In this document: in pieces, positions 5,341-24,330 of the stretch
Layout of the letters: every line of letters starts with the position of its first letter
How positions within the stretch are numbered: the first letter of the stretch is position 1
Assembly: GCA_002070055.1 (NCBI GenBank)
Contig: MWCM01000005.1
Coordinates: forward strand, 2,015-66,014
Length of the DNA: 64,000 nt
DNA from: a bacterium ADurb.Bin212
Lineage (GTDB): Bacteria; Patescibacteriota; UBA1384; XYA2-FULL-43-10
Direction: 5' to 3'
Translations under genes and position numbers: made by a program
The notes under the pieces: generated by a model
Databases searched by the model: none
What the model saw: only the letters and a program-made list of their open reading frames with translations
What the model was told of the DNA's origin: nothing

Positions 5341-5379
5341 CCAAACCAAAAAACCAAAAAAATTGGTTTTTTGGTTTGG
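5341..5379 (-). terminator. A/T-only perfect palindrome (15-bp stem, 9-nt loop) abutting the tRNA-Leu 3' end
   Basis: ccaaaccaaaaaacc / ggttttttggtttgg pair perfectly. The encoded CCA of the tRNA is part of the stem. Confidence 0.4.
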
Positions 5380-5461
5380 TGGGCGTAGAGGGACTCGAAC
5401 CCCCATGTCTTGCGACACTAGTTCCTAAGACTAGCGTGTCTACCAATTCCACCATACGCCC
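5377..5461 (-). tRNA. tRNA-Leu (anticodon UAG), type II with long variable arm
   Basis: Manual cloverleaf: acceptor GGGCGTA/TACGCCC, D-stem GTG/CAC with loop GAATTGGTAGA, anticodon stem CTAGT/ACTAG with loop CTTAGGA. Variable arm TGTCGCAAGACAT, T-arm GGGGG-TTCGAGT-CCCTC, discriminator A, encoded CCA. Strongly resembles canonical bacterial tRNA-Leu. Confidence 0.85.
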
Positions 5462-6518: not shown

Positions 6519-7055
6519 TTATATTGTAATCAAATCCTTAATTTTTTCAAAAGTTTTGGATCCAATTCCCTTAATATTTTGGACTTCCGAGATATCTTTA
6601 AAACCTCCGTTATTATTGCGATATTCGATAATCCGGGAAGCGTAAGCGGGACCTATGCCAGGAAGAGTGTCGAGCTGAGAAGCACTAGCGGTATTCAAAT
6701 TAATCTTAGCACTTAGAGGAGAGCTGTTAGCTGTTGTTTTTGTTGCCACACCCGCTACATCTCCGCTGTCTGTAGTAGGCGCGGAAACCTCATTTGTCGT
6801 TGCAATTGTAGCAATGCCGTTGATCTTATTTTCCAGTTCGGCGATTTTTACATTCTGCTCATCAATCTTTTTTGATAATTGCTCTGCTCCTCCATTATTC
6901 ATTATTCTTAATTCATTATTCTCACTCGTTCTCCAATACAAATATCCCCCGCTCAACATAATGCATAAAAGAAGCACGGAGCCGATATACCACCTATAAC
7001 GAAAAATAAATTCATCTGTTTTACTATCTTTTTTCCCGGATTGTTCTGATATCAT
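6519..7055 (-). CDS. comEA: ComEA-like helix-hairpin-helix DNA-binding protein
   Basis: N-terminal TM helix. C-terminal LNTASASQLDTLPGIGPAYASRIIEYRNNNGGFKDISEVQNIKGIGSKTFEKIK is a tandem HhH ComEA signature. Confidence 0.8.
   Translation of the reverse strand: MISEQSGKKDSKTDEFIFRYRWYIGSVLLLCIMLSGGYLYWRTSENNELRIMNNGGAEQLSKKIDEQNVKIAELENKINGIATIATTNEVSAPTTDSGDVAGVATKTTANSSPLSAKINLNTASASQLDTLPGIGPAYASRIIEYRNNNGGFKDISEVQNIKGIGSKTFEKIKDLITI
6892..6921. repeat. AT-rich mini-repeat family 1 copy (CCATTATTCATTATTCTTAATTCATTATTCT), in frame inside comEA
   Basis: 31/31-nt identity with 15607-15637 (iscS). Encodes ELRIMNNGG on the minus strand. Confidence 0.7.
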
Positions 7056-9665: not shown

Positions 9666-9672
9666 AATTATG

Positions 9673-9703
9673 CTTAATCCTTAATTCTGTATTCTTAATT
9701 CTC
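9673..9703. repeat. TTCTTAATTC-type repeat immediately upstream of the recG start
   Basis: CTTAATCCTTAATTCTGTATTCTTAATTCTC. Confidence 0.5.
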
Positions 9704-9783
9704 TATTCCATTTCGCTTTTTGCATAATACATTTTGCATTTTGCATTAAGCATTGTATTAATTATACCCTCAAGCTCCGTAAA

Positions 9784-9812
9784 TTGACAAACTTTGATTT
9801 TTATTATATAAT
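9784..9812 (+). promoter_or_regulatory. consensus sigma70-type promoter TTGACA-N17-TATAAT upstream of the Lnt-like gene
   Basis: Exact TTGACA (9784-9789), a 17-nt spacer, exact TATAAT (9807-9812). Followed by a leader with a 12-bp inverted repeat (CCTTTGAGCCTA...TAGGCTCAAAGG) and AGGAGG 6 nt before the ATG at 9975. Confidence 0.5.
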
Positions 9813-9974
9813 GATATAATTCGCACGCAGCGAAGTGTGTTTTTTGTGTACCTTAACAACTTTTCCTTTGAGCCTAATTAGGAATTAGGCTTTAGGTCTT
9901 AGCTTTTTTGGATAACCTAATTTCCAGCTAGGCTCAAAGGAGTAAAAACAAATCCCCTCAGGAGGGACGCCGCC

Positions 9975-11288
9975 ATGATCGAAACACTGCACATCGCGGC
10001 CGCCTTGGCGGCCATCCTGTCGTTTCACGTCGCATTCAGGTGGGAGAAGGCGGGCGGGCTGATTGTTGTGTACATGGCCTGCCTCTTCTTCCTAACCGGA
10101 GTCCCCGACCCCTTGCGGGCGGGGACGTTGGGCATGGCCATCGGGTTGGGCACTGTGCCCTTCCAGATGTGGTTTATGCTCAGATTCCTGGGAGGGAAGG
10201 CGCTTGGCCTGTGGCTCTACATGAGCTCACTGCCGGCGATCTTTCTCCTGCTGTCCTCGTACCTTAGGGGCAGCCACGAACTTATGGTGCTCGCTGTCCC
10301 CTTCGTTTGGAGCATCATCGAAGTGGGAAGGAGCGAGTGTGGCAGGTTGCGCTACAGCTGGCTCATACCGGCTCATGCGCTTTCCGCTAGGCCGTGGATC
10401 AAGCTCCTCGGAGCAGGTGTCTACGGTTTCAGCTTCCTCGTCATGGCAGCCCTTGCGCTCTGCGCGGTGCTGCCGGCCTACCTCTGGCCGGTCGTCGTTG
10501 GGGCAGCCCTTGGCGCCTTGATCGTTCGGCAGAGCCCCTTCTGGACGCATAAGCACCTTCAGGTGGCCGGCTTCCAGATTGAGGCAGGCGTGGACGGCGG
10601 CACGGGCCTGCGTTTTGCAGGATACGACGAAATCCTGCGCCAACTCCACCGCTGCCTCCACCGCCACCCCAACGCCGAACTGGTAGTGGCACCCGAGTAC
10701 GCGCTACCAGACCAACCCGAGGCAATGCTTCTGGCATGGTGCCGAAAGTTCGGCAAGTGGCTGCTTATCGGCGGCCGGGAACACCTTGACGACGATGGCG
10801 GGTTCAGAAACACCGCCTATCTCGTCTCCCCCCTCGGAGAGGTATTCCGGCAGGGCAAAATGGTGCCCATACCCACGGCACCGGACGGTCTGCCCGCCAC
10901 CGAGCAGAAGCCGCTTCGTAACTCCTTGGGCACTCTTGGCATCTGCATCTGCTACGACCTAAGCTTCGCCTCGGTCGTAGCACCGCTCGTTGAGAGTGGT
11001 GTGCAGGCGCTGGTGGTGCCATCAATGGACCTTGCGGAGTGGGGTCCGCACGAGCACCGGCTTCACGAGAAGTGGGCGAGGATTATGTCCTACGTCTACT
11101 CCTTGTCGGTGTTCCGTGTGGTCTCCTCCGGCCAGTGCCAACTGGTTGATTGCGGAGATGTCCTTGCGGTCAGCCAGGACGGCACCATCGGCGACAACTT
11201 GCCCATGCACTTGGGCGAAGTGCCTACCGACTGGAGGATCCTCCGCCACCTCCTTCCTCCGCTCGTGCGCGCGCCGAGTGAGGAGTAA
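9975..11288 (+). CDS. lnt: apolipoprotein N-acyltransferase (Lnt)-like: polytopic N-terminal domain plus C-terminal CN-hydrolase domain; high-GC
   Basis: About 6 TM helices, then a nitrilase-superfamily domain. Candidate catalytic residues are Glu in LVVAPEYALP, Lys in FRQGKMVPIP and Cys in LGICICYDLSF. Visibly GC-rich relative to the flanks. Confidence 0.7.
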   Translation: MIETLHIAAALAAILSFHVAFRWEKAGGLIVVYMACLFFLTGVPDPLRAGTLGMAIGLGTVPFQMWFMLRFLGGKALGLWLYMSSLPAIFLLLSSYLRGSHELMVLAVPFVWSIIEVGRSECGRLRYSWLIPAHALSARPWIKLLGAGVYGFSFLVMAALALCAVLPAYLWPVVVGAALGALIVRQSPFWTHKHLQVAGFQIEAGVDGGTGLRFAGYDEILRQLHRCLHRHPNAELVVAPEYALPDQPEAMLLAWCRKFGKWLLIGGREHLDDDGGFRNTAYLVSPLGEVFRQGKMVPIPTAPDGLPATEQKPLRNSLGTLGICICYDLSFASVVAPLVESGVQALVVPSMDLAEWGPHEHRLHEKWARIMSYVYSLSVFRVVSSGQCQLVDCGDVLAVSQDGTIGDNLPMHLGEVPTDWRILRHLLPPLVRAPSEE

Positions 11289-11312
11289 CAACTTCTGCGC
11301 ACAGAACACGGA

Positions 11313-11352
11313 AGCCCCGCTCTACCTCGTAGAGTGGGGCTTCTTGCTTTTC
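11313..11352 (+). terminator. intrinsic terminator after the Lnt-like gene
   Basis: GCCCCGCTCTAC-CTC-GTAGAGTGGGGC hairpin followed by TTCTTGCTTTTC. Confidence 0.5.
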
Positions 11353-11392
11353 TATCTTGATTTTTTCGGTGATTGTGTTAATATGCGGTTAC

Positions 11393-11640
11393 TTGCAAGA
11401 GGTTTGAGGGCGGCGCTTCGGCGGCATCTCCAGCGGTAGCCTTGGCATCACAAAGGACATCCGCACGAGCTAAGTTTGCTCGGGAGGCCCAAGTAAACCG
11501 CAGCCATTCCTTTTGCAAGGAGGTCAGCCCGCCTTTCGGGTGAACCGGGGTAGAGAGCGTTGTAGCAATGTTGCTGTTACACCCCGCCAGCACTCATTGC
11601 TGCTCTCTACCCACCTTTTTTAAGTCAAGAGCTAGCGGCT
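11393..11640 (+). ncRNA. candidate structured RNA or leader (GC-rich, promoter-like start, tandem terminators at the 3' end)
   Basis: Promoter-like TTGATT-N16-TAATAT (11359-11386). About 250 nt of GC-rich sequence with long inverted repeats. Ends with a GGGTAGAGAGC...GCTCTCTACCC hairpin plus TTTTTT, and a second hairpin AGAGC-TAGCG-GCTCT plus T8. Class not identified. Confidence 0.3.
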
Positions 11641-11711
11641 CTTTTTTTTGTTTTAAAAATAGATTCCATGTTATGATTTGAATAATAGATCAATTAAATA
11701 GTGAGGTATAA

Positions 11712-12083
11712 ATGCCAGGCGAAACAATCGGACCCGTATTAGAAGCAGAAACAAACAACCCAGAGAAAGAAGAGCAGCCAATAGGTGCTGGACCATATTT
11801 TTTAGCAGGAAAACCAAAAAATGAAAGCTATTTAGGAGATAATACCATAATTACTCTAGCTGTATGGCACGGCACACCGGTTTTAGCTCCCAGCAGCCAA
11901 CTGGATCGTGGCCTAGAGCTAGATGTAACAGTTGCCACAGACGAAAAAGAAGAACTAAGAACCGAAAACGGTGGTTATGATATCGGTGGTATATATAAGC
12001 TGGAAGACGGAGAACTTATCACCAAAAGAGCATACGAAAATAAATACGGCACAACTAATAGAACCGAAGAAATAGCCGCTTAA
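11712..12083 (+). CDS. hypothetical protein (123 aa)
   Basis: ORF with RBS GTGAGGT before the ATG. Followed by a terminator. No motif. Confidence 0.4.
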   Translation: MPGETIGPVLEAETNNPEKEEQPIGAGPYFLAGKPKNESYLGDNTIITLAVWHGTPVLAPSSQLDRGLELDVTVATDEKEELRTENGGYDIGGIYKLEDGELITKRAYENKYGTTNRTEEIAA

Positions 12084-12090
12084 AATTATT

Positions 12091-12119
12091 AAAAAATGAG
12101 CTTTTAAGCTCATTTTTTA
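12091..12119 (+). terminator. intrinsic terminator (ATGAGCTT..AAGCTCAT hairpin plus T-run), potentially bidirectional
   Basis: Palindrome flanked by an A-run and a T-run. Confidence 0.5.
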
Positions 12120-12159
12120 AATTATGTAATTACTTTTGTGATATTTGATATTTGATATT

Positions 12160-13404
12160 TTATTTTTCTATCGTTCCCCCGCCGATCACTTCGTCTCCAA
12201 TAAAAAACACAGCGCTCTGGCCGGGGGTGACGGCTCTCTGTGGTTCATCAAATATTACCTTAATCGTTCCTTGCTTAATTCTTAATCCTGAGTTCTTAAT
12301 CTTGCAACCCACACTTTTCGCCTGTGATCGGATTTTGACTGATAAGTTAGTAGCGGGTAGCGGGTAGTGAGTAGGGACATTGATCCAACTTAAATTAGAT
12401 ACAACCATCTCTTTCTTATAAATCTCGCTATCTTCCCCGACTATTAACCGGTTTTTTGACCGATCAAACCCAGCCACATACAAAGGTTTTTTATCATAAA
12501 GGGATTCCTCGGCTTCTCGCAAAACCTGCGAGTCGCTCGGAATGACAGTATTAACGTTCTTCAGTTCTTTGGTTTCTCGGTTCTTAAGTTGTTGGTTAAT
12601 TCCCCTCCTCTGTCCTATCGTATAATTAATCAACCCTTCATGCCTTCCCACAATATTACCTCCTGTATCAACAATATCTCCTGACTCAATACAGCTGTCT
12701 TTTACCTCATTCTTTAAAAATTCCCGATAATCCGTATTTTGCAAAAAACATATCTCTTGACTCTCTTTTTTTTCGGCAACTGGTAAATCCCATTTTTTCG
12801 CCAGCTCCCTCACCTCTTTTTTGGTTAATTCACCAAGAGGAAAGATTACTTTAGATAGTTGCTCTTGATTAAGCCGGTAAAGCATATAAGACTGGTCTTT
12901 GGAGTTATCGAATCCAGCAAGTAAATGATAAATTGTTGTATTGTTAAATTGTTTTTTATTCGAATAATTAGAATTTGGATATTTATTGGTTATTGCGCCT
13001 TGGTTATTGGTTGTTTCCGAATCTTTGATTCTGGCATAATGTCCTGTTGCCAACTTTGCACATCCAAGTTTCTCTGCCTCACCTATGAGTAGCTTAAATT
13101 TGATCTCCGGATTACAAATCGTGCATGGATTCGGAGTGCGCAAATTTTTGTATTCGGAAACAAAATACTCTACCACTACCCTTTTGAACTCTGCTTCTGC
13201 ATCAATCTCATAGAACGGGATCTTTAGAAACTCTGCCACCTTTCTAGATTCAAGCAGACCATCATCTACGCCATCATGCTTCCACATCTTTAAAAAGAGC
13301 CCGATTACATCGTAGCCCTCATCTTTTAATATTTTTGCTACTGCAGCACTATCTACGCCCCCGCTTAAGGCTACAGCGACTTTTATTTTGGAATTATGAA
13401 TCAT
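12160..13404 (-). CDS. mnmA: tRNA-specific 2-thiouridylase MnmA (with low-complexity insertion)
   Basis: PP-loop VAVALSGGVDSAAVAKIL near the N-terminus, and C-terminal domains typical of MnmA. The longer ORF extension to 13485 runs through mini-repeat sequence, so I prefer the ATG at 13404. Confidence 0.85.
   Translation of the reverse strand: MIHNSKIKVAVALSGGVDSAAVAKILKDEGYDVIGLFLKMWKHDGVDDGLLESRKVAEFLKIPFYEIDAEAEFKRVVVEYFVSEYKNLRTPNPCTICNPEIKFKLLIGEAEKLGCAKLATGHYARIKDSETTNNQGAITNKYPNSNYSNKKQFNNTTIYHLLAGFDNSKDQSYMLYRLNQEQLSKVIFPLGELTKKEVRELAKKWDLPVAEKKESQEICFLQNTDYREFLKNEVKDSCIESGDIVDTGGNIVGRHEGLINYTIGQRRGINQQLKNRETKELKNVNTVIPSDSQVLREAEESLYDKKPLYVAGFDRSKNRLIVGEDSEIYKKEMVVSNLSWINVPTHYPLPATNLSVKIRSQAKSVGCKIKNSGLRIKQGTIKVIFDEPQRAVTPGQSAVFFIGDEVIGGGTIEK
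12274..12305. repeat. TTCTTAATTC-type repeat in frame near the mnmA 3' end
   Basis: CTTAATTCTTAATCCTGAGTTCTTAATCTTGC. Peptide KIKNSGLRIKQG. Confidence 0.5.
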
Positions 13405-13420
13405 GAATAATGAATAATGC
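13391..13420. repeat. family 1-related repeat (GAATTATGAATCATGAATAATGAATAATG) at the mnmA start
   Basis: Same GAATAATGAAT units as the other copies. Overlaps the mnmA start codon region. Confidence 0.5.
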
Positions 13421-13453
13421 AAAATACTATAATTCGCTATTCGCAACCCGTTA

Positions 13454-14266
13454 TTATACTTTTTTCTGCGCGGCAGAAACCACATTCTTCATAAGCATCG
13501 CTACCGTTACCGGACCAATTCCACCTGGCACTGGCGTATAATATGAAGCTTTTTTATAACAAGCCCCATCCACATCACCGGCTAACTTTCCGCCCACTTC
13601 GGTTGTTCCGGCATCAATTAGTACAGCACCCGTCTTGATCATATTTGGTTTAATAATATCGGCCACTCCGGTTGCCGAAATTATAATATCTGCATCAAGG
13701 GTTATTGTGCCCAAATATGGCGTGTCCTTGTAGGCGATTCTAACCTCATTAGCGGTTCTCTCCAACATCCTGGCAATAGGCGAACCAACCAAGAAACCCT
13801 TACCAATAATAGCTACCTTTGAATCTGCCAGATTAACACCGGATCTTTCTATAGCTTGCATTATCGATAAAGTAACAGGAGGGCGGAAATCGCAACTCAG
13901 ATTGCTACAAAACCTAAGTCCATCAACATCTTTTTCTGGAGAGATAATTGAAATAATATCAACAAGATCAAATTTTTTCGGCATCGGAACCTGAACCATT
14001 ACTCCCACGACTTTTTGATTTTCGTTCAACTCCTTGATACGTGTTTCTATCTCTGTTTTTTCGACATTATCAGAATACTTAATTAAGTCAAAATGAATCC
14101 CAACTTTCTCGGCGGCACGTTGCTTGACCTCAATGTAACGAGCGCTGGCGAAATCATCACCGACCCAAATAACAGCCAAGACCGGCTCGACCCCTAATTG
14201 ATCAACCTGAACTTTAAGTTGATCTAAGATTTCATCCCTAATTTTTTTGCCATCAAAGTAATTCAT
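13454..14266 (-). CDS. folD: bifunctional methylenetetrahydrofolate dehydrogenase/cyclohydrolase FolD
   Basis: YIEVKQRAAEKVGI, GKGFLVGSPIARML and PVPGGIGPVTVAMLMKNVV motifs. Start taken at MNYFDGKK. Confidence 0.9.
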   Translation of the reverse strand: MNYFDGKKIRDEILDQLKVQVDQLGVEPVLAVIWVGDDFASARYIEVKQRAAEKVGIHFDLIKYSDNVEKTEIETRIKELNENQKVVGVMVQVPMPKKFDLVDIISIISPEKDVDGLRFCSNLSCDFRPPVTLSIMQAIERSGVNLADSKVAIIGKGFLVGSPIARMLERTANEVRIAYKDTPYLGTITLDADIIISATGVADIIKPNMIKTGAVLIDAGTTEVGGKLAGDVDGACYKKASYYTPVPGGIGPVTVAMLMKNVVSAAQKKV

Positions 14267-14346
14267 GATTCGTAATTCAAACACAAATCTGTAACACAAA
14301 TCTTCACAAATGGGGAATAAATAATGATTGGTGATAATTTGCCTAA

Positions 14347-14760
14347 TTATTTGAGTTGTAATCTCCTCTTATAATCCTCAATTGCTTTCTTTATAGCATC
14401 TGCAGACAATATTGAACAGTGATATTTTTGCGCTGGTAATTTTCCCAGACTGTCATTAATGTCGTCACGGGTAATCTTTTCAGCTGATTCTAAACTCTTT
14501 CCCTTAGCCAACTCCGTCATCATACTACTTGCTGCAATAGCCGCAGCACAGCCAAGAGTTTTAAACTTAATATCAGAGATGTAATCTTCCACTTTTTCCT
14601 TTCCACTTTTTCCTTTTACCTTGCGAGTTTTTATTTTAATAAAAACTCGCATCACGTCTCCGCACTTAAGATTGCCAACTTCACCGACACCATCAGCGTC
14701 TTTTATCTCCCCGACATTCCGCGGGTTTTCAAAATGATCTAAAACTTCTTTTGTATACAT
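14347..14760 (-). CDS. iscU: Fe-S cluster assembly scaffold IscU/NifU-like (with Lys-rich insertion)
   Basis: LKCGDVMRVFIKI and FKTLGCAAAIAASSMMTE, the conserved Cys ligands of U-type scaffolds. Confidence 0.85.
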   Translation of the reverse strand: MYTKEVLDHFENPRNVGEIKDADGVGEVGNLKCGDVMRVFIKIKTRKVKGKSGKEKVEDYISDIKFKTLGCAAAIAASSMMTELAKGKSLESAEKITRDDINDSLGKLPAQKYHCSILSADAIKKAIEDYKRRLQLK

Positions 14761-14828
14761 CTTTTTATTCTAAGTTATTGATTATTGATAATTTGGATAT
14801 TCATCGGTTATTGTTTCTTGAATATTGA

Positions 14829-16163
14829 TTATTTGCCATATGGGCTCATTTGCCTTAATTTTTTTATGATGCCGGGAAGTATTTCTATTACACGATCGAT
14901 TTCCTCCTCCGTATTATGTTTCCCTAAACTAAAACGAATCGAGCCGTGGGACCACTCTGGTGATACGCCTATAGCTGTTAAAACATGGCTTGGTTCCAGC
15001 GATCCCGATGTACAAGCGCTCCCACTAGATGCCGCTATGCCCTCTTTATCAAGCATTAATAGAATTGATTCCCCTTCGGCATTCTTAAAACTTACATTAA
15101 CATTATTTGGGGATCTTCTTTTGAGGCAACCGTTGACTCTGGTATCAGGAATCTTCATTAAACCTTTAATTAATTTATCTCTGAGTTGCTTTAATCGTTT
15201 AGTTTCATCGTATAAAATCAATTCCGGCAAAAGTTTTCCAGATTCCTCGATTTTGCTATCAGCTTTGGCTTTATGCATCTTAACCAGTGCAGCACTCAAA
15301 CCGGCGATGCCGGCCACATTCTCTGTTCCGGCACGCATTTTATTCTCTTGGTTGCCACCGACTATCTGCCTGATTATTGGCGTGCCATTTTTAACGAACA
15401 GCGCGCCCACGCCTTTTGGTCCGTAAAATTTGTGAGCAGAGAAAGTAAGCAAATCAACACCCAAATATCTGACACCGGTTTGGAAATATTCCATTGCTTG
15501 CACCGCATCGGTGTGGAAATAAATTTGCTTTGCAAATTTATTTCCCGAATTATGAATAAAGAATGAAGAATTATGTTTATTCGGCTCAGTAACATTAGAC
15601 TTTTTCCCATTATTCATTATTCTTAATTCATTATTCTTCGCTATCATCTGTGCGATTTGCTTAATTGGTTGCACTGTGCCTATCTCGTTATTAACATACA
15701 TAATGCTCACCAAAACCGTGTTGTCTTTAATCTCCGCGTCTATATCCTCAACTCGTATCACACCGTTTTTCTGCGGAGTTACATAGCTAGCCTCTATCAG
15801 GCCCTGTTTCTCTAACTCCTTCACAGTATCCAAAACAGAGTGGTGTTCTACGGCACTTGTTATAACATGAGGCGTCGCTCTATTATTTTTCTGATCTGTG
15901 TTACTATGATATGCGTCAATCAAACCTTTTATAGCTAAGTTATTGCTTTCGGAGCCACCAGAGGTGAAAATAACCTCTTCGGGCTGGCAATTGAGACTAA
16001 AGGCTACAGTGTCCCTTGCTTCGTTTAAGATATTTCTAGCTCCCAAACCAAAGCTATGTGCAGATGATGCATTGCCCCAAAATTCCTTCTGAACCTTGTT
16101 CATAAGCAGAGCTACCTCCGGATCAGGAGGAGTTGTCGCCGAATGATCTAAATATATCTTCAT
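14829..16163 (-). CDS. iscS: cysteine desulfurase (group I IscS/NifS type) carrying an in-frame mini-repeat insertion
   Basis: IYLDHSATTP, PLP-lysine motif SAHKFYGPKGVGALFV, and active-site loop SSGSACTSGSLEPSHVL. Start taken at MKIYLDH (16163). Confidence 0.9.
   Translation of the reverse strand: MKIYLDHSATTPPDPEVALLMNKVQKEFWGNASSAHSFGLGARNILNEARDTVAFSLNCQPEEVIFTSGGSESNNLAIKGLIDAYHSNTDQKNNRATPHVITSAVEHHSVLDTVKELEKQGLIEASYVTPQKNGVIRVEDIDAEIKDNTVLVSIMYVNNEIGTVQPIKQIAQMIAKNNELRIMNNGKKSNVTEPNKHNSSFFIHNSGNKFAKQIYFHTDAVQAMEYFQTGVRYLGVDLLTFSAHKFYGPKGVGALFVKNGTPIIRQIVGGNQENKMRAGTENVAGIAGLSAALVKMHKAKADSKIEESGKLLPELILYDETKRLKQLRDKLIKGLMKIPDTRVNGCLKRRSPNNVNVSFKNAEGESILLMLDKEGIAASSGSACTSGSLEPSHVLTAIGVSPEWSHGSIRFSLGKHNTEEEIDRVIEILPGIIKKLRQMSPYGK
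15547..15575. repeat. inverted, diverged partner of family 1 repeat (GAATTATGAATAAAGAATGAAGAATTATG) inside the cysteine desulfurase gene
   Basis: Imperfect reverse-complement of the 15606-15637 copy, about 30 nt away. Together they form a ~90-nt MITE-like unit encoding SSFFIHNSGNK...NNELRIMNNG. Confidence 0.5.
15606..15637. repeat. AT-rich mini-repeat family 1 copy, in frame inside the cysteine desulfurase gene
   Basis: Identical core to 6892-6921. Encodes NNELRIMNNGKK. A partner in inverted orientation lies at 15547-15575. Confidence 0.7.
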
Positions 16164-16177
16164 TTGTCTTCTATCCT

Positions 16178-16387
16178 TTAGTCCTTGAGTCTTTTTGTAA
16201 TCTTCCTCAAATCTTCCACGCACTTTTTGCAATTCTCTCCACTAACTAACTTGTCGTAGCAATCTTTAGGAACTAAGTAGGCCACCGGAGTCGAGTATCG
16301 CATAACTTCATATACCTCGCCTTCTTCGGTTTCACGAATCACCTTTGATAGCTCGTTTTGTAATTTATTGGTTGTTATTCTTTTCAT
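16178..16387 (-). CDS. small protein with Phd/YefM-type antitoxin-like N-terminus (orphan)
   Basis: KRITTNKLQNELSKVIRETEEGEVYEVMRYSTPVAYLVPKDCYDKL follows the Phd/YefM pattern (..LS..i...e.GE...v.R...PVA.LVP..Y..L). No toxin partner is seen. Confidence 0.35.
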   Translation of the reverse strand: MKRITTNKLQNELSKVIRETEEGEVYEVMRYSTPVAYLVPKDCYDKLVSGENCKKCVEDLRKITKRLKD

Positions 16388-16453
16388 AATTATCGTTAAA
16401 TATATGTTACATGTAATGTAACATTTGTAATTAGCTCTGTCAACTTTGTCGAT

Positions 16454-17257
16454 CTATTCCATGCCAAAAAATTGCAACGATTTTTTACTGGTGCTTTGTT
16501 CAACGGTCGCTACGGGTATTTGTTTAATTTCCGCAATCTTTTTTGCCACTTCAATCACATAAGCAGGTTCGTTTCTTTCACCACGGTAAGCCTCGGGGGC
16601 AAGATATGGGCAATCCGTTTCAATCATTATTGAACCAAGTGGTGTCTTTTTAATCACCTCTTCAATATCTTTGGATTTTGAGTAAGTTATATTACCAGTA
16701 AAAGAGATTAAAAAATTTAAGTCCAAGATCTTTTTTGCAAAATCATAATCGCCGCTAAAACAATGTACAACACCACGCAAAGCACCAGAGTAACTTTTTA
16801 ATATGGCATAAATATCCGCCTCTGCCTCCCTAGAATGGACAATAACCGGTAACCTTAATTCAAGAGCTAAGTCCAACATCTGCTCAAAACAGAAGATCTG
16901 ATCTTCACGCTTTGGATAATTGGCAAATTTTGAAGATCTTTTTAAATAGTAGTAATTAAGGCCTATCTCACCGACGGCGATAACCTTGCGATTTTTTGCC
17001 AAATCGGTGAGATACGGTCTAGTCTCCATATCCAAATCTAACGAAGAGTGGGGATGTAGACCCACAGCGGCATAGATCTCGGGGTAATGTCTGGCAATCT
17101 CCACAGATCTCTTTGATGTGCCTAAGTCTACTCCGACATTGATGATTTTTTCGACACCAAAACTCTTGGCTCGTGCAATAGCCGAGCCTATTTCTCCTTT
17201 AAACTCAGGAAAATCCAAATGTGCGTGGGTATCAATGAACATAATCTTCAGTTTCAA
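16454..17257 (-). CDS. tatD: TatD-family metal-dependent DNase/hydrolase
   Basis: MFIDTHAHLDF, VGLHPH, IGEIGLNYYY, PVIVHSREA and IETDCPYLAP motifs. An alternative start sits at 17242. Confidence 0.9.
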   Translation of the reverse strand: MKLKIMFIDTHAHLDFPEFKGEIGSAIARAKSFGVEKIINVGVDLGTSKRSVEIARHYPEIYAAVGLHPHSSLDLDMETRPYLTDLAKNRKVIAVGEIGLNYYYLKRSSKFANYPKREDQIFCFEQMLDLALELRLPVIVHSREAEADIYAILKSYSGALRGVVHCFSGDYDFAKKILDLNFLISFTGNITYSKSKDIEEVIKKTPLGSIMIETDCPYLAPEAYRGERNEPAYVIEVAKKIAEIKQIPVATVEQSTSKKSLQFFGME

Positions 17258-17329
17258 GTTAAAAGTTCATCAAGTTTGAAAGTTGGTGGATTTTGCTTTA
17301 TGAACTTAATAGGCATTCCGCTTTATAAA

Positions 17330-18166
17330 TTATTTAAAGGTTACGAATAAGATACAGGATATCAAAACAATAAAGGCAAAAACATCTCTTTTGAACAGTT
17401 TCTCTCTAAACCAAAAGAACGACAAGAAATAGACTAAAAAAGGACCCAAAACAAGAATCATAGTGGTTTCGGTCACGCCAAGTTTATCGAAACCATAAAA
17501 TTTTAAAACCATCTGAACAACCCCTAGCATAGCAGTTAGTAGCAACAAAAAGAATGATGATTTCGAAAAGCCTAACATTTTGGGTCTGTAGGCAAACACA
17601 AAAACTATTGCCAATATTGTAGTTCTTAAAAAATATAACGACACCGGCGACAAGACATCTAAAAGCATTTTGATGAAAATTGATTCAATAGACATCAGGA
17701 ACATGGCCAGCATTGTCATCCAGGCAATTTTGCCGATTTGTACATGATGATGACGAAAACGTGTGAGCAGCAAGGCCAAAGAGGCCACGACTCCTGCTAA
17801 AAAAGTTTGCCAATTACGTTCCTGTGGTAAAAATATCTCTGCCAAGATAATTGTAACCATTGGAGACAGCAACATAATAAGCTCAAACTCGTGGATATCT
17901 TCTTGTTGGATTCCCCTATAATACAGGATATTCCATGTCACAGCGGTTGCCACCATAATTATGACCAAAAAGAGATATTTGGGTGTAAGCAACAAATCCA
18001 GATTAACAGAACCCCACTTTGCCAACAAAATTGCCGTAAAAATTGCTAAAAACACAAACAACATCGGGACAAAACGAAATAGTGGAATCTTTCTTTTGCT
18101 CAGCAGTATCTTGTCGGTTACTATCCCGCCGGCATAACCTATCGAAGCAATAATAGCGTTTAACAC
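17330..18166 (-). CDS. EamA/DMT-superfamily membrane transporter
   Basis: About 10 TM helices arranged as two EamA-like halves. Confidence 0.55.
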   Translation of the reverse strand: MLNAIIASIGYAGGIVTDKILLSKRKIPLFRFVPMLFVFLAIFTAILLAKWGSVNLDLLLTPKYLFLVIIMVATAVTWNILYYRGIQQEDIHEFELIMLLSPMVTIILAEIFLPQERNWQTFLAGVVASLALLLTRFRHHHVQIGKIAWMTMLAMFLMSIESIFIKMLLDVLSPVSLYFLRTTILAIVFVFAYRPKMLGFSKSSFFLLLLTAMLGVVQMVLKFYGFDKLGVTETTMILVLGPFLVYFLSFFWFREKLFKRDVFAFIVLISCILFVTFK

Positions 18167-18238
18167 TAACCCTCCAAAGTAATTTTCAATTTAAAATTTA
18201 TAATTTAAAATAAATGTTGAATGAGGAAAATAATAAAA

Positions 18239-19669
18239 CTAGGATTCAATTCTTGGGAAAAGAGGTTCTGGCTTGAGTGTTTCCAGCTGTATTTTCATTT
18301 TTTCAGCGGTTTCAGGCATAAACACATCGAGGCTCGATGCTATTTGCTTTAACTCACTATATGCTTGGTTAAGGGTGGCTTCCGCAGCTTTATTTTCCCC
18401 GCTCTTTATCTTCTCCCAGGGCTTTTCGTCATCTATCATACGGTTTACTTGACCAACAGAGTTAATTACCTGCTCAAGACCCTCAGCGAATTTAAACTTT
18501 TCGATATACTCTGCAGTATTAATTGGATCAGATTCAAAGGTGTGTAATTCTATTCCGTAGCGGTTGATCATTGACAGCACCCTCTGATTCAAATTGCCTA
18601 TTCCATTACATAGATCAGCAGTGTATTTGGCGTCCATCTTCTCCCATGTAAGATCGCCGTCACTGTTATAAGGAAGAGATGACAGTAATATATATCTGGT
18701 TGCGTCCCGACCATATCTGTCAATTATCTCTTGAGGAAAAATAACATTACCGATACTTTTTGACATCTTCTTGCCGTCTATAGTCAGATATTCGTGGACA
18801 TAAATCTTTTTGGGCAACCTTAGACCGGCAGATAAGAGTAGCGCGATCCAGTATACCGCATGGAAACGCATTATTCCTTTACCTATCATGTGGGTGATGT
18901 TGTCCCCATTTAACCAGAACTTTTTGTACTCATCGTCATCCGATGAATACCCAAGGGCGGTAATATAATTAGCCAAGGCGTCCACCCAAACATACATTAT
19001 TTGATCTTCATCACCAGGAACAGGAACACCCCAGTTCTGCGCACGCTCTTTGGATCGTGATACAGAGAAATCTTCTAGTCCGCCTCTAATAAAGCTCAGT
19101 GTTTCATTTCTGCGGAAACTAGGAATAATTTCTATCTCATCATTTTCAATCAATTCTAGTAGCTTTTCCTGATAATTTGATAGTTTAAAAAAGTAATTCT
19201 CCTCCTCCACTATCTCCAATGGCGAATCATGCTCTGGACATTTGCCGTCGCAAAGATCGGCCTCCGTTTTGAATTCCTCACAGCCGACACAGTAATAACC
19301 TTTGTAGTTTTTCTTATATAGATCTTCCGGTTTCAACGCCTGCCACATCTTTTTACAGCCATCAAAATGCTGTTTGCTGGTGGTGTGAATAAACTTGTCG
19401 TAAGACAAATTTAAAAGCTCTTTTAGCCCCTCAAACTCGCTACTATTTTTAGCTACAAAATCAGCCGTATCCATACCTGCTTTTTTGGCGGCCAATACAT
19501 TTTTAAGGCTGTTTTCGTCTACACCTGATAAAAAAAAGACGTCATTTTTTTGACGGTATTGGCGGGCCAAAACATCTGCTTGAATCTTCTCCACAGCATG
19601 GCCCACATGTGGGATAGAATTAACATAATCAATAGCAGTGGTAATATAAACGGTTTTATTCTCTGACAT
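18239..19669 (-). CDS. metG: methionyl-tRNA synthetase (short form)
   Basis: HIGH-type motif PHVGHA, KMSKS present, and a Cys-rich zinc knuckle CVGCEE...CPEH. Confidence 0.9.
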   Translation of the reverse strand: MSENKTVYITTAIDYVNSIPHVGHAVEKIQADVLARQYRQKNDVFFLSGVDENSLKNVLAAKKAGMDTADFVAKNSSEFEGLKELLNLSYDKFIHTTSKQHFDGCKKMWQALKPEDLYKKNYKGYYCVGCEEFKTEADLCDGKCPEHDSPLEIVEEENYFFKLSNYQEKLLELIENDEIEIIPSFRRNETLSFIRGGLEDFSVSRSKERAQNWGVPVPGDEDQIMYVWVDALANYITALGYSSDDDEYKKFWLNGDNITHMIGKGIMRFHAVYWIALLLSAGLRLPKKIYVHEYLTIDGKKMSKSIGNVIFPQEIIDRYGRDATRYILLSSLPYNSDGDLTWEKMDAKYTADLCNGIGNLNQRVLSMINRYGIELHTFESDPINTAEYIEKFKFAEGLEQVINSVGQVNRMIDDEKPWEKIKSGENKAAEATLNQAYSELKQIASSLDVFMPETAEKMKIQLETLKPEPLFPRIES

Positions 19670-19728
19670 AAAAATTGCTCCGGATTAGGGACTCAATAAT
19701 CACAGGATAACAAATTAACTGTATATTC

Positions 19729-20307
19729 TCAAATATATTTGATCATCTCAAAATCATCACAGGAGCACGGGTTACCACAAACTGTGCACTCAAAGTTATC
19801 AATGCCGACTTTTTTTGAATGTTCATACCAGGTTTTTTTATGAAGTTTAAGTGGTTCAAAGCCAAAACTTTCGAACAATTTCTGTGAGGCATTACCAGGA
19901 GAAGACTGCCAGCAGTGTACGCCAACTGCCTTAGCTCCGATGTTTTTTTGCTCGATCAATGACTTTTTTAATAGTTTTTTACCTATACCCATGCCTTGAT
20001 ATTTTTCATGAACTGCGATTAAAACCACGTAGCCATAGTTTTTCTTGTCGCAAATAATTTTGTCTAATGAAAAATATTTGTCTTCCATCTCCTCAAAAAT
20101 TCGTCCCGGATATCTTTGAACGATAACTCCTACAATATCAGGCCCTATTTTTGCAATAAGCATCTCACCAACCGAGAGTGATTTGAAGTAATCAATTCCC
20201 CAATCGCTATCACGCACAACTTGGCAATTTATTATATCATTAGCCTGAATAAAGTCATTCTCTGTAACAGGTAAAGATATCCTAATTTTTGAATTTCTAT
20301 CTGCCAT
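19729..20307 (-). CDS. GNAT-family N-acetyltransferase with Cys-rich C-terminus
   Basis: Acetyl-CoA binding motif QGMGIGKKLLKK. C-terminal CTVCGNPCSC. Confidence 0.8.
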   Translation of the reverse strand: MADRNSKIRISLPVTENDFIQANDIINCQVVRDSDWGIDYFKSLSVGEMLIAKIGPDIVGVIVQRYPGRIFEEMEDKYFSLDKIICDKKNYGYVVLIAVHEKYQGMGIGKKLLKKSLIEQKNIGAKAVGVHCWQSSPGNASQKLFESFGFEPLKLHKKTWYEHSKKVGIDNFECTVCGNPCSCDDFEMIKYI

Positions 20308-20308
20308 T

Positions 20309-21031
20309 TTAATTTTTAATTTTTGATCTTTTAATTATTAATACGAATTCACCTTTTAGTTTATGATCATTTAGATCTTCAGCTACTTCTTTGATTGTGC
20401 CGCCCCAATACTCCTCGAACATTTTTGTCATCTCGCGAGCGATAAAGACCTGTGTTTCTGCTCCAAAATATTCTTTTATGTCGTCTAAAGTTTTTTCTAT
20501 CCTGAAAGCCGACTCGTAAATAACAATAGGTACATCAACAACTGAAAGATGTTTTAACTGTGTTTGGCGCCCTTTCTTCTTGGGCAAGAAACCAGCAAAA
20601 TAGAACTCTTTATCGACCAATCCACTCACAGATATTGCCGAAGTTACAGCTGAAGCTCCCGGTATTGGAATAATTTTGATATTTTCATTGTCATTTTGAT
20701 TTTTGATATTTACATTTTGAATTAATTTTTGTCCCGGATCCGATATTCCAGGCGTTCCGTTGTCGGTAACATATGCGACACTCCTGCCAGCCAAGAGTTC
20801 AGCTATGACTTCATCAATTGACTTCTCAAGCGAATGTTGATGAATCGCTTTCAGCGGTTTTTTTATTTCGAGCTTATGAAGTAATAGCCCTGAAACCCGT
20901 GTATCTTCACACACCACTAAATCGACGCTCTTTAAAATTTCGATTGCGCGCAAAGTAATATCCCCCATATTACCAATGGGAGTGGCTACAATATATAAGT
21001 TCCCAATTGTTTCATTGTTAAATTGTTTCAT
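20309..21031 (-). CDS. rsmI: 16S rRNA (cytidine1402-2'-O)-methyltransferase RsmI (tetrapyrrole-methylase fold)
   Basis: GNLYIVATPIGNMGDITLRAIEILKSVDLVVCEDTR, the canonical RsmI N-terminus. Confidence 0.85.
   Translation of the reverse strand: MKQFNNETIGNLYIVATPIGNMGDITLRAIEILKSVDLVVCEDTRVSGLLLHKLEIKKPLKAIHQHSLEKSIDEVIAELLAGRSVAYVTDNGTPGISDPGQKLIQNVNIKNQNDNENIKIIPIPGASAVTSAISVSGLVDKEFYFAGFLPKKKGRQTQLKHLSVVDVPIVIYESAFRIEKTLDDIKEYFGAETQVFIAREMTKMFEEYWGGTIKEVAEDLNDHKLKGEFVLIIKRSKIKN
20671..20731. repeat. TTTTGAT-type tract in frame inside rsmI
   Basis: Encodes NIKNQNDNENIKII. Similar tracts at 23295-23329 (rsmA), 12137-12167 (downstream of mnmA) and 20307-20336. Confidence 0.55.
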
Positions 21032-21151
21032 TGTTCAATTTTCTATCAGTGACAATCAGTGAAATAAATCAGTGGTGGTGCTCTCCTTATGAAGAAACTC
21101 TAGCATATTCACGCCTAAAATGCTATTCTATATTCGCGCTCGAGGTGAAAA

Positions 21152-21490
21152 ATGAAAAACGACAACGGTCTTGCTGATGGATTCGGGGTGGCAACCTTTA
21201 GTACACCTCCGATTTCCAATGATGCGGGTCAGTCTGTGGGCAGGAGTATGATTGTCTATGTCGCCTTCCGGATGGAGGACGGAAGCGACGCTACCGCTAC
21301 AATTGTTGGATGGTGGAGCCTAGTGGGGCTAGCACCCTCTGGCCTTGATCTTAGAGGCTTGAGAATAGCGGGCTATCCCTGCAAGGTGTATGACTCAAAG
21401 AACAGCAATGCGGAAGTTGTCGGATTTCTGGATTTCCAATCCGTCTACTTCTGCAGTGAGCGCAGAACAGAGCCCGCTGATCCTGATTAA
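21152..21490 (+). CDS. hypothetical protein (112 aa) in a short high-GC island
   Basis: ORF preceded by GAGGTGA 5 nt before the ATG. Visibly GC-rich. No motif. Confidence 0.3.
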   Translation: MKNDNGLADGFGVATFSTPPISNDAGQSVGRSMIVYVAFRMEDGSDATATIVGWWSLVGLAPSGLDLRGLRIAGYPCKVYDSKNSNAEVVGFLDFQSVYFCSERRTEPADPD

Positions 21491-21644
21491 TCGGGAGGCG
21501 GGCCAAACCCTAAAATTATTATAGTATTATTATTGTAAGACAATTTTTAGTATTTTGGGATTAGAAATTTAATTATAAATTAGGATTTAAAAATTAGAAA
21601 TTAATAAACCCCATATTCCCAACCGTGTATGTTGTCCGTATAGT

Positions 21645-23015
21645 TTAGAACAACATCGCCCAAATACTGGCAATGCCGGCAATTGACATAAGAGCCACTG
21701 TGATCCAACCCATTATTTTGCCCAGCCAACCGCTTCTTCTTTCGCCCATAACTCTTTTACTGGAAGCTAAAATTACAATACAAACCAAAATCACCGGCGC
21801 AGCTAAACCGTTTGCCACCGCTGAATATATCAAAGCTTTTATCGGGTCTATGCCGGTAAAATTTATGCCTATGCCGATAAGCATCGAAATTATTATTATT
21901 CCATAAAAAGCATAGGCTTGCTTTAGTTTTAGATGTAAACCTTGCCTCCAACCAAAACTTTCCGCTATGGCATAAGAGCTGGAACCGGCTAAGACCGGTA
22001 TACCAAGAAGGCCCGTGCCGATAATGCCAAGCGCGAATAAAAAGTAAGAATAATCTCCGGCAAACGGCCTTAAGGCCTCCGCAGCTTGAGCCGCTGTATC
22101 TATATTTGTAATGCCATTTGCATTTAAAGCTGCTGCACAAGTTACGATAATAAAGAACATTACCAAGTTCGACAAAAACATGCCGCTCCAAACATCTGTC
22201 CGCATGTTCTTTACCTCTTCGTTATTCACATCATTTTGACGCAATTTTATATTGGTTAGACCTTTTTCTATGCGCTCCTCAACTTCCTGAGATGTCTGCC
22301 AAAAGAATAAATAGGGAGAAATAGTTGTGCCCAAGATGGCACAAATCAGAATGATGCTATCGCGGCTTAAACTCATATTTGGAGTAACTGCGCTTTTTAG
22401 TATCTCGCGCCAGTTTATTCCATCAATCAGTAGCGCAGAGAGCACGTAAGCAAGTAAAATCATCGCCAACCACTTAAGAACATTAGCATATTTTTTATAG
22501 GCACTGTAAATCTGCAAGAAAAGTATAATCAGGGCAAACAAAACCACCGCAAGCAGATAGTTTACCCCCCAAAACAATCTGATCGCCTCCGCCATAGCAC
22601 CCAAATTGGCCCCGATATTTAAAGTGTTGGCAACAAATAGAAGCACCGTGCAAAAAATTAGCACCTTACGGGAAAAATGTATTCGAATGTTTCCGGCCAG
22701 CCCCCTGCCGGTGACCATGCCTATCCTGGCACACATTTCTTGAACCACGGACATTAAAGGATAGGTGAATGCCGCTAACCACAAAAAAGCGTAACCGTAT
22801 TGCGCACCGGTTTGTGAATAGGTAGCAATTCCACTTGGATCATCGTCGCTAGCTCCGGTAGTTAAGCCCGGACCCAAAGAGTGCCAATAGCTACGCAAAG
22901 TAGCAATGGACTTTCCTGCCACCTTCTGCTCCAAACTCTTCGAAACCTCGACTGTTTTTTCGAGACCCTTTGCAGGAGACTCAACAATCTTTTCGAAGAC
23001 ATTCTTCTGATTCAT
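21645..23015 (-). CDS. mntH: NRAMP-family divalent metal (Mn2+/Fe2+) transporter
   Basis: DDDPSGIATYSQTGAQYGYAFLWLAAFTYPLMSVVQEMCARIGMVTGRGLA aligns with the NRAMP DPGN..TD..GAQFGY...LSARLG.VTG signature. Multi-pass membrane protein. Confidence 0.8.
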   Translation of the reverse strand: MNQKNVFEKIVESPAKGLEKTVEVSKSLEQKVAGKSIATLRSYWHSLGPGLTTGASDDDPSGIATYSQTGAQYGYAFLWLAAFTYPLMSVVQEMCARIGMVTGRGLAGNIRIHFSRKVLIFCTVLLFVANTLNIGANLGAMAEAIRLFWGVNYLLAVVLFALIILFLQIYSAYKKYANVLKWLAMILLAYVLSALLIDGINWREILKSAVTPNMSLSRDSIILICAILGTTISPYLFFWQTSQEVEERIEKGLTNIKLRQNDVNNEEVKNMRTDVWSGMFLSNLVMFFIIVTCAAALNANGITNIDTAAQAAEALRPFAGDYSYFLFALGIIGTGLLGIPVLAGSSSYAIAESFGWRQGLHLKLKQAYAFYGIIIISMLIGIGINFTGIDPIKALIYSAVANGLAAPVILVCIVILASSKRVMGERRSGWLGKIMGWITVALMSIAGIASIWAMLF

Positions 23016-23032
23016 TTGTGCCCCTCCGCCAC

Positions 23033-23069
23033 GAATATAGAATAACGAATAATGAATTATGAATAATGG
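23033..23069. repeat. family 1-related repeat (GAATATAGAATAACGAATAATGAATTATGAATAATGG), intergenic between the NRAMP gene and rsmA
   Basis: Shares the GAATAATGAATTATGAATAATGG core. Confidence 0.55.
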
Positions 23070-23082
23070 TTTATTGCATAAC

Positions 23083-24042
23083 TTAATACTGGCTATTCTC
23101 TATTTCTCTTGCTAACATAACCCATTGCTCGATTGTAAGCTCCTGAGCCCTAGCGTTTCTACCTATATTCATCTTATCTAATAGTTCTATGGTCTGTCCA
23201 CTACTTAAATTGGTGCCAGCCTTTAAGTTATTAAATAAGGTCTTTCTCCTCGCCCTAAACCCAGCTTTCACTATTTTAAAAAAGTTTTTTTCATCAATTT
23301 TTGATTTTTGATATTTAATATTTGATATCTTTATGATCGCACTATCAACTGTTGGCACAGGAAAAAAAGAATCGCGTTTTACGATATCAACAATCTCCGG
23401 ATCACCATAATATTGCACCGAAACACCTAGCAGCGATAAATCGCCGTTCTTAGCACATACCCGCTCCGCCACCTCTTTTTGCACCAAAAGAACGATAAGC
23501 ACTGGCTTATTGTCGGCAGTTAGAAATTTCTCAAGAATTTTCGAGGTAATATAGTAAGGAATGTTGGCTACTAGCTTGTAGGGAACAGGTTCTAGGTTTA
23601 AGGTTTCAGATTCTAGTGATTCCTGCATCAAATCTGTCCCTTTTCCTTTGTCATCCCGAGCGACTCGCAGATTTTGTGAGGAGTCGAGGGATCCCTTTAT
23701 TATTGATTCAGGATCAAATTCTAAGGCATCTTCGCAAATTATTTCCGCGTCTATACTTAATTCTGAATTCTTAATTCTTAATTCTAGTAAATTTGCCAGC
23801 TTCTCATCCTTCTCAATCGCCACTACCCTTCCGGCTTTTATAACCAGCTCCTCTGTTAACGCCCCAACCCCTGGGCCGATCTCCAATACCAGATCTGACA
23901 GCTTAAGATCAGCAGCTGTTACAATTTTATCGAGCACCCCTCGGTCAACTAAAAAATTCTGGCCCAAGCTTTTTTTAGCCCAGAGCCCATTTTGTTTTAA
24001 ATAACTTATTAGTTCGTTCTTATTGGTTAAATCCATAGTCAT
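23083..24042 (-). CDS. rsmA: 16S rRNA (adenine1518/1519-N6)-dimethyltransferase RsmA/KsgA (with ~60-aa insertion)
   Basis: LGQNFLVDRGVLDKIV, SAM motif VLEIGPGVGALTEEL, and LVANIPYYITS. Start taken at MTMDL (24042). The longer ORF runs into GC-rich non-coding sequence. Confidence 0.9.
   Translation of the reverse strand: MTMDLTNKNELISYLKQNGLWAKKSLGQNFLVDRGVLDKIVTAADLKLSDLVLEIGPGVGALTEELVIKAGRVVAIEKDEKLANLLELRIKNSELSIDAEIICEDALEFDPESIIKGSLDSSQNLRVARDDKGKGTDLMQESLESETLNLEPVPYKLVANIPYYITSKILEKFLTADNKPVLIVLLVQKEVAERVCAKNGDLSLLGVSVQYYGDPEIVDIVKRDSFFPVPTVDSAIIKISNIKYQKSKIDEKNFFKIVKAGFRARRKTLFNNLKAGTNLSSGQTIELLDKMNIGRNARAQELTIEQWVMLAREIENSQY
23295..23329. repeat. TTTTGAT-type tract in frame inside rsmA
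   Basis: CAATTTTTGATTTTTGATATTTAATATTTGATATC. Encodes ISNIKYQKSKID. Confidence 0.55.
23756..23787. repeat. TTCTTAATTC-type repeat (CTTAATTCTGAATTCTTAATTCTTAATTCTAG) in frame inside rsmA
   Basis: Encodes LELRIKNSELSI on the minus strand. Related copies at 12274-12305 (mnmA, KIKNSGLRIKQG) and 9673-9703 (upstream of recG). Confidence 0.55.
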
Positions 24043-24045
24043 TTT

Positions 24046-24330
24046 GGTGTGGCCGACTACCCGCCTCGGGGGCGGGTGTCGGCCGGTGTGCGGTCTCTCC
24101 TCGGTGACACACAAACCTCAAGGCTGTATTCAGGGTCGGTGTACTCCGTTGATGCAGCGTCGGGGTTGATACCATGAGATCTTAGCTCATGTTTACCGGA
24201 ACACTCCAAGCACTGAACATTCTGTAGCTTCCAACAACCACATCTTGGACGTGGCATATGGGCCCTCCCGTGACATGTTGCTATAGACCACAGGAATTAC
24301 ATACAAAATAATCAATATAAGCAATAACCC
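24046..24330 (-). other. GC-rich structured intergenic segment (candidate ncRNA or leader) between the G5/DPBB gene and rsmA
   Basis: About 280 nt of GC-rich sequence in an AT-rich genome. Hairpins GGCCGAC-ACCCGCCCCCGAGGCGGGTA-GTCGGCC and CATGAG-ATCTTAG-CTCATG. The overlapping 66-aa ORF is implausible. Confidence 0.3.

Follow-up and report, generated by a model that had tools for sequence, protein, structure and literature searches.

Imperfect heptanucleotide arrays of the GAATTAA type in spacers and in the reading frames of housekeeping genes in a Patescibacteria genome

In a 64,000-nucleotide (nt) stretch of contig MWCM01000005.1 (GCA_002070055.1, bacterium ADurb.Bin212), hereafter the window, three GAATTAA-type sequences occur in rsmA, in mnmA and just upstream of recG. 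An initial annotation had described them as copies of a discrete short-repeat family (family 2), next to a related GAATAAT-type family (family 1). The copies are instead tandem arrays of a 7-nt unit. Family 2 is probably best explained as imperfect GAATTAA heptanucleotide microsatellite arrays of about four units, which are filtered by the reading frame and over-represented in this genome and its relatives. Judged by its sequence, the host is a Berkelbacteria-like metagenome-assembled genome (MAG) of the Candidate Phyla Radiation (CPR). The homologues of its RsmA protein are annotated as Berkelbacteria or Patescibacteria, and the orthologues are 270-368 amino acids (aa) long. All window coordinates are local to the window. 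The three genes, each confirmed by Pfam, and their arrays are as follows.

7377-9665, minus strand: recG
9673..9708, minus strand: untranslated five-unit array of the GAATTAA type in the recG leader, 8-43 nt before the start codon (GTG, 9665)
12160-13485, minus strand: mnmA
12274..12305, minus strand: imperfect GAATTAA-type array of 3.9 units in mnmA, encoding KIKNSGLRIKQ; the stop-position unit is GAACTCA
23083-24114, minus strand: rsmA
23756..23785, minus strand: imperfect (GAATTAA)4.3 in rsmA, encoding ELRIKNSEL; the third unit is GAATTCA (in-frame TAA to TCA)

The sequences are present at the annotated starts (9673, 12274 and 23756) and in or next to the annotated genes. Read on the plus strand, the recG-leader copy is CTTAATC CTTAATT CTGTATT CTTAATT CTCTATT, the mnmA copy is CTTAATT CTTAATC CTGAGTT CTTAATC TTGC and the rsmA copy is CTTAATT CTGAATT CTTAATT CTTAATT CT. 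The units lie head to tail. Tandem Repeats Finder (TRF) reports a period of 7 with 3.9-4.3 copies at 12274 and 23756, and a period of 14/21 for the recG-leader array (9669-9708). The arrays are imperfect, with 70-91% matches by TRF. The three copies are approximately 76-80% alike and have almost nothing in common outside the periodic unit.

The recurrence of these sequences is far above chance. With up to two mismatches, CTTAATTCTTAATTC has 15 matches in the window, compared with 0.40 expected from dinucleotide-preserving shuffles, and none of 100 shuffles reaches this count. The claim that the repeats are non-random therefore survives the shuffled control. A degenerate 29-nt pattern that covers families 1 and 2 has four exact and five near matches in the window, compared with zero expected. 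The period itself is also enriched. The window contains 15 arrays of period 7 and 17 of period 14, compared with 0.3 and 0.1 in Markov shuffles. All other periods have five or fewer arrays each, and 7 and 14 are the only strongly enriched periods.

At a looser threshold, the window contains approximately 35 period-7 arrays, most of them 4-5 units long, and the number of different units exceeds 20 (among them TTCATTA, TTTTGAT, TTATTGA, TTTTGCA, GGTAGCG and CCTTTTC). What was called family 2 is therefore a single variety of a widespread class of heptanucleotide arrays and not a family of its own. The GAAT-type group comprises eight loci in both orientations, if the divergent mnmA copy is counted as the eighth; four are coding sense, one is coding antisense and three are non-coding. 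Non-coding DNA makes up approximately 9% of the window, and 16 of the 35 arrays lie in it or at its edge, an approximately five-fold enrichment. More than half of the arrays sit in frame inside housekeeping genes (rsmA, mnmA, recG, iscS, iscU and comEA). In 17 of the 19 coding arrays, the sense strand is rich in A, and the encoded residues are K, N, Q, I, S and E.

Syntenic loci of relatives were compared with the window. L002-L004 contain iscS-iscU-folD-mnmA-recG-comEA, and L001 runs from eamA to mnmA. The rsmA region is represented by L202 and L203, the latter extending to folD. The further arrays of the window that are discussed below are as follows.

6893..6921, minus strand: family 1 (GAATAAT)4 array in comEA, including one GAATTAA unit and encoding NNELRIMNNG
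7990..8017, minus strand: (ATCAAAA)4 in recG, encoding the insertion DQKSNIKNQN, which is missing from L002 and L003
9709..9755, minus strand: (AATGCAA)n heptamer array in the recG leader, adjoining the GAATTAA-type array
12349..12374, minus strand: (CCGCTAC)-type array in mnmA, encoding PTHYPLPATN and common to L001
13391..13419, plus strand: (GAATAAT)4.1 where folD and mnmA meet; the probable start of mnmA (13404) lies within the array
14587..14622, minus strand: purine-rich array with a 7/14-nt period in the IscU loop, encoding KVKGKSGKEKVED
15547..15575, minus strand: GAAT-type array in the opposite orientation in iscS, with ATAATTC units on the sense strand and encoding HNSSFFIHNS
15608..15636, minus strand: family 1 array in iscS, encoding NNELRIMNNG
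23031..23068, plus strand: (GAATAAT)-type array of approximately 5 units in the Nramp-rsmA intergenic spacer, with an orthologous array in L202
23300..23328, minus strand: ATATCAA x4.1 in the second variable loop of rsmA, encoding KISNIKYQKSKI

The peptides encoded by the arrays follow from the DNA unit. Because a 7-nt repeat shifts the reading frame by one nucleotide per unit, running through all three frames in every 21 nt, each reading frame yields the same cyclic heptapeptide. For example, (GAATTAA)3 is read as GAA TTA AGA ATT AAG AAT TAA, which is E L R I K N stop. In the coding copies, a variant unit is found exactly at the in-frame TAA. This unit is GAATTCA (N-S) in rsmA and GAACTCA (N-S) in mnmA. 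In the CPR-like contigs L091, L093 and L098, the stop is removed by GAATAAA (AAA), which gives ELRIKNKELR in RsmA, IF-2 and a TsaD-like protein. The untranslated recG copy retains its in-frame TAA. Family 1 obeys the same logic: (GAATAAT)n reads E-stop-stop-I-M-N-N, and its lone GAATTAA unit removes both stops to give NNELRIMNNG.

The gene-frame translations are LELRIKNSELSI in RsmA and CKIKNSGLRIKQG in MnmA, and related peptides thus do occur in these two proteins, as first described. The signature proposed for them, N-x-(G/E)-L-R-I-x-N, fits best in family 1 (NNELRIMNN) and in the recG copy (NRELRIQN), which is not translated. Elsewhere the fit is loose: RsmA has L-L-E-L-R-I-K-N, and MnmA has a terminal Q instead of N. 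The suggestion that families 1 and 2 are one diverging element is correct insofar as the GAATTAA core unit lies inside family 1. This unit fills the position of two in-frame stops, so that its presence requires no shared ancestry of families 1 and 2 and cannot demonstrate one.

The recurrence of ELRIKNS, IKNSGLRIK and NNELRIMNN is the forced translation of the DNA unit and is therefore no evidence of a protein motif. The peptides are by-products of the DNA repeat, the signature being the only possible cyclic reading of (GAATTAA)n once the stop is repaired. Selection at the protein level, in which amphipathic ELRIKNS-type segments would be recruited convergently as a motif in unrelated enzymes, is extremely unlikely. 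ELRIKNSEL is retained in RsmA orthologues of only 65-69% identity and is modelled by AlphaFold as a helix extension with fair confidence, as such selection would have it. However, the period is 7 nt and not 3 or 21 nt, synonymous positions are included, and the repeat is also found untranslated, upstream of recG and in spacers. At the corresponding RsmA loop, other relatives have unrelated peptides.

In the relatives, the arrays are found at variable loops. In alignments of 15 orthologue families, lineage-specific insertion columns contain 27% of array-encoded residues and 5.4% of other residues (odds ratio 6.4). Array-bearing insertions are found in RecG, IscS, IscU, ComEA and MnmA. In IscS, a 29-aa insertion holds two arrays; the 15608-15636 array within it is common to L001 and L203, and L002 and L004 are without the insertion. 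In the RsmA loop, the window and L202 share (GAATTAA)n, and L203 has instead a perfect (AAATCAA)4.3 (NQKSKIKNQN). The second variable loop is occupied in L203 by a perfect (AAATATC)4.4. The IscU loop contains different arrays in L001, L002 and L203, and none in L004. The C-terminal site of MnmA is heptamer-periodic in four of five sequences (the window, L001, L002 and L004), with different units. More generally, distant relatives have different arrays or units at corresponding sites, and whole-unit steps are not distinguishable there. In the L001-L004 loci, the array density is 5.2 per 10 kb, and the unit differs from array to array. Heptamer arrays in acidobacterial loci occur at 0.95 per 10 kb, in line with the published over-representation of heptanucleotide repeats in many prokaryotes (PMC4692102, PMC4679880). 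In Pyrinomonadaceae (Acidobacteria; L005 9543-10018 and L012 806-1299), AATCGTG-type arrays flank mnmA on both sides in inverted orientation; these arrays show that lineage-favoured heptamer units exist outside the CPR.

The rsmA array is conserved between lineages. L202 contains the array and its TCA fix, one synonymous change apart from the window. ELRIKNSEL is also present in RsmA proteins of 65-69% identity, and the array with its TCA fix is shared with proteins P0005 and P0007. Because it is common to L202 and to these proteins, the rsmA array is old and translated. In the AlphaFold model of RsmA (mean predicted local distance difference test score 81), residues 87-96 form the end of a surface helix and a loop, and a larger insertion (residues 118-149) is disordered. 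For iscS, the array has no extra DNA-level conservation relative to its flanks, which are equally conserved, and the comparison is uninformative. An assembly artefact is rejected, as the arrays recur in independent assemblies and samples.

The length of the arrays differs between coding and non-coding DNA. Across seven related loci, a length of 3.9-4.7 units (29-31 nt) is found in 35 of 61 coding arrays and in 7 of 26 non-coding arrays (Fisher p = 0.011). The non-coding arrays have between 2 and 8.5 units. Within genes, the frame is kept only by net changes of three units (21 nt, 7 aa), and this would explain why coding arrays cluster at 4.0-4.5 units (approximately 4.4). The coding length mode is that predicted if a seed of approximately 1.4 units passes a reading-frame filter that admits steps of +3 units (21 nt). 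An expectation that coding DNA holds units in multiples of three has been stated previously (PMC4679880).

The proposed origin is at the DNA level. Arrays would arise when a 7-nt register is copied repeatedly, either because the polymerase slips or because it switches template. They persist in spacers, in leaders and, when in frame, within protein loops that tolerate extra residues. Units that place a stop codon in frame have to be mutated. The inserted peptides may be neutral, and the coding arrays would have been born in one step and not by successive +7-nt slips. Either slippage or burst synthesis could be the source.

A broader proposal is that burst-type DNA synthesis in this CPR clade writes arrays of approximately 30 nt in a 7-nt register in single events, which would in some cases replace sequence without adding to it and in others transfer a copy of an existing array to a new locus, and that it is a principal generator of loop insertions and turnover in essential proteins. 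This proposal is tentative and rather doubtful. If true, it would point to a polymerase or repair activity that is dedicated or unusual, and not to ordinary stepwise microsatellite slippage.

Several observations weigh against frame-filtered microsatellite arrays as a full account. A one-step +21-nt event must be postulated, because stepwise addition of 7 nt frameshifts essential genes. In L002 and L004, the mnmA arrays ("IIQNSKFIIQF") fill a segment of conserved length and add no residues. In the strain at locus L201, which is 99.95% identical over 13.3 kb, no array differs in length, and ongoing slippage is thus not observed; the imperfect arrays are stable on the timescale of this divergence. 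Independent local expansion does not predict the identity of the two family 1 copies over 31 nt. Finally, the preference for GAAT-containing units, which make up 31% of arrays compared with 8% expected within the clade (a count inflated by orthologous arrays), is not explained by this account.

The last two of these observations are those expected of a mobile or copy-pasted element of approximately 30 nt, in which a preformed array is moved between loci by ectopic gene conversion or template switching. The identity of family 1 is between 6891-6927 (comEA) and 15607-15642 (iscS), with the variant unit in the matching position, and at either end it includes one flanking base that breaks the period. 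L002-L004 lack the comEA copy, and the iscS copy is older. This pattern suggests, at the level of sequence, that family 1 was copied between loci. GAAT-type units are 3.7-fold over-represented among arrays, ELRIKN-type arrays are found at three RsmA sites across CPR lineages and in IF-2 and the TsaD-like protein, and the recG and mnmA copies share the start TGCTTAAT.

As an account of family 2, a mobile element is unlikely. The similarity of the family-2 copies lies almost wholly within the periodic unit, and more than 20 other unit types behave alike. Terminal inverted repeats, target duplications and conserved non-periodic ends were not found, and shared variant units are largely forced by stop-codon avoidance. 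In window positions 5-25 kb, an inverted-repeat search found none flanking the copies, the only pair being that of the two iscS arrays with each other. A discrete element like a miniature inverted-repeat transposable element is rejected for family 2; near-identical copies with non-periodic boundaries occur in family 1 only (2 loci).

The wider distribution of the unit also does not favour mobility. In metagenomes, the degenerate 29-mer is found, among the matches listed, in at least 120 unrelated contigs with a GC content of 0.18-0.70 and unrelated flanks, and 179 of the 232 matches listed are perfect (GAATTAA)4. In a collection of viral contigs, (GAATTAA)4 is present at 23 loci, compared with 12, 17 and 25 for three composition-matched heptamers. 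This collection is rich in giant viruses and is a poor proxy for bacteria (hexamers at 100 or more loci, an octamer at 10). Because its frequency there matches that of control heptamers, GAATTAA is not globally special.

A third alternative is that the arrays function in DNA or RNA, for instance by binding proteins, regulating translation or flanking terminators, as proposed for TAACTGA or GGGAATC repeats. One observation in its favour concerns the recG leader. Within window 9666-9812, the leader is built almost entirely of two heptamer arrays, and an AAGGA motif resembling a Shine-Dalgarno sequence comes from the last unit of the GAATTAA-type array. The leader lies between the GTG start and a minus-strand promoter close to consensus (9790..9761, 11/12). 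A perfect 9-bp stem of upstream leader sequence (9753-9745) with 9678-9670 is predicted and would cover the AAGGA ribosome-binding motif. A divergent, perfect 12/12 TTGACA-17-TATAAT promoter is found at 9784-9812, directly followed by a terminator-like hairpin (9820-9840).

Many arrays lie at gene boundaries, and inverted pairs have a strict polarity. Among the matches listed for metagenome loci L081-L200, the order 5'-(GAATTAA)n-spacer-(TTAATTC)n-3', with a spacer of 8-150 nt, is found 21 times counted by strand (approximately 11 loci), and the opposite order is not found (0). The spacers often contain a small GC hairpin, and by sequence these pairs look like terminators that act in both directions and have enlarged A/T flanks. 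This order also occurs inside coding insertions in iscS (window 15547-15636), where the two arrays form an imperfect inverted pair, and in recG (L004 12222-12295).

Nevertheless, a functional element is very unlikely as a general explanation. Unit sequences are highly diverse, orthologous sites carry unrelated replacement units, and over half of the arrays occupy variable loops encoded by essential genes. In iscS, the RNA hairpin formed by the inverted pair is only marginally stable and barely exceeds shuffles (z = -2.05). A scan of the whole window with Rfam at the gathering score found only tRNA-Leu (5380-5461), so that a known RNA family is not the source of the repeats. A perfect 21-nt inverted repeat with a 5-nt loop (5337-5383) overlaps the 3' end of this tRNA (5377-5461, minus strand) and is probably its terminator.

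Other features of the window were noted. A giant open reading frame of 3570 aa (26977-37689) contains almost no heptamer arrays; its near-identical copy in L201 has fn3 and Laminin_G_3 matches, and the product is probably a surface protein. The segment 9975-12083 has a GC content of 56%, compared with approximately 39% in its surroundings, and contains a 437-aa reading frame with a weak CN_hydrolase match and a 123-aa reading frame with no match. This block is probably acquired DNA because it splits mnmA and recG, which are adjacent in L002-L004. The 701-aa product of a second GC-rich island (51904-54009, 60% GC) has an N-acetylmuramoyl-L-alanine amidase domain at its C terminus. In L202 (496-3780), a UvrD-type helicase contains an intein (Hint and Intein_splicing matches); the window UvrD (39688-41712) is without one.

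If housekeeping loops acquire residues from frame-filtered microsatellite arrays, length variation of housekeeping proteins in the ultrasmall CPR bacteria would have a DNA-level source for many lineage-specific loop insertions. The clustering of coding arrays at approximately 4.4 units would, if births go in 21-nt steps, constrain the mutational mechanism. For annotation, an in-frame 7-nt repeat implies a fixed cyclic heptapeptide with forced stop-repair substitutions, and recurring "motifs" may be by-products of a repeat. Heptamer arrays are thus a hazard for alignment and for homology-based motif discovery.

The arrays can be compared with several known repeat systems. Heptanucleotide simple sequence repeats (SSRs) are described, in passages of PMC4692102 and PMC4679880 that both cite Mrazek et al. 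2007, as the most over-represented class of long SSR in many prokaryotes, and the same passages give a polymerase-footprint slippage hypothesis for them. As in those SSRs, the arrays described here are short tandem 7-nt arrays that are far above chance, occur in scattered lineages and are enriched in non-coding DNA, and slippage in a 7-nt register is proposed as the origin in both. Unlike those SSRs, more than half of the present arrays are in frame in housekeeping genes, and they are imperfect and clustered at approximately 4.4 units. A phase-variation contingency locus was considered and rejected, as the arrays are imperfect (70-91%), lie in housekeeping genes and are invariant in the close strain L201.

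Short tandemly repeated repetitive (STRR) sequences of heterocystous cyanobacteria reportedly have the units CCCCAGT, TTGGTCA and CAACAGT, as Mazel and colleagues are said to have described in 1990. Membership of this cyanobacterial group is rejected for the window arrays, whose units are GAATTAA, GAATAAT and others and whose host is a Patescibacteria MAG. The STRR sequences and the GGGAATC / GGGGA(T/C)T repeats of Xanthomonas and Nostoc (PMC4692102) resemble the present arrays in that they are lineage-favoured tandem heptamers at many loci, sometimes in inverted pairs. They differ in being G-rich and essentially intergenic, whereas the arrays described here are in a CPR host and have AT-rich units (GAATTAA or GAATAAT), and are thus without G-quadruplex potential.

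The small dispersed repeats of Nostoc punctiforme show a further likeness to family 1. These repeats, as Elhai and colleagues are said to have described in 2008, are reportedly approximately 21-27 nt long, lie inside conserved genes and are associated with tandem heptamers. The family 1 copies, which are identical over 31 nt in two genes, are similar to them. The family-2 copies, in contrast, are non-identical and without a defined non-periodic core, and mobility in the present case is hypothetical.

The TAACTGA repeats of Beggiatoaceae, Cyanobacteria and Bacteroidetes (PMC4679880) form 2-6 direct heptamer copies, often just upstream of start codons, as does the recG-leader array. Stop codons in the cyclic translation restrict the placement of these repeats (PMC4679880). 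They consist of a single dominant heptamer with related ones rare, whereas the present arrays have many units, and the coding arrays have repaired stops. In the literature searched, no report was found of in-frame heptamer arrays in CPR coding sequence. Heptanucleotide SSRs are already known and have been described as essentially intergenic; the in-frame arrays in essential CPR genes, their stop-repair substitutions and their narrow length mode appear to be new.

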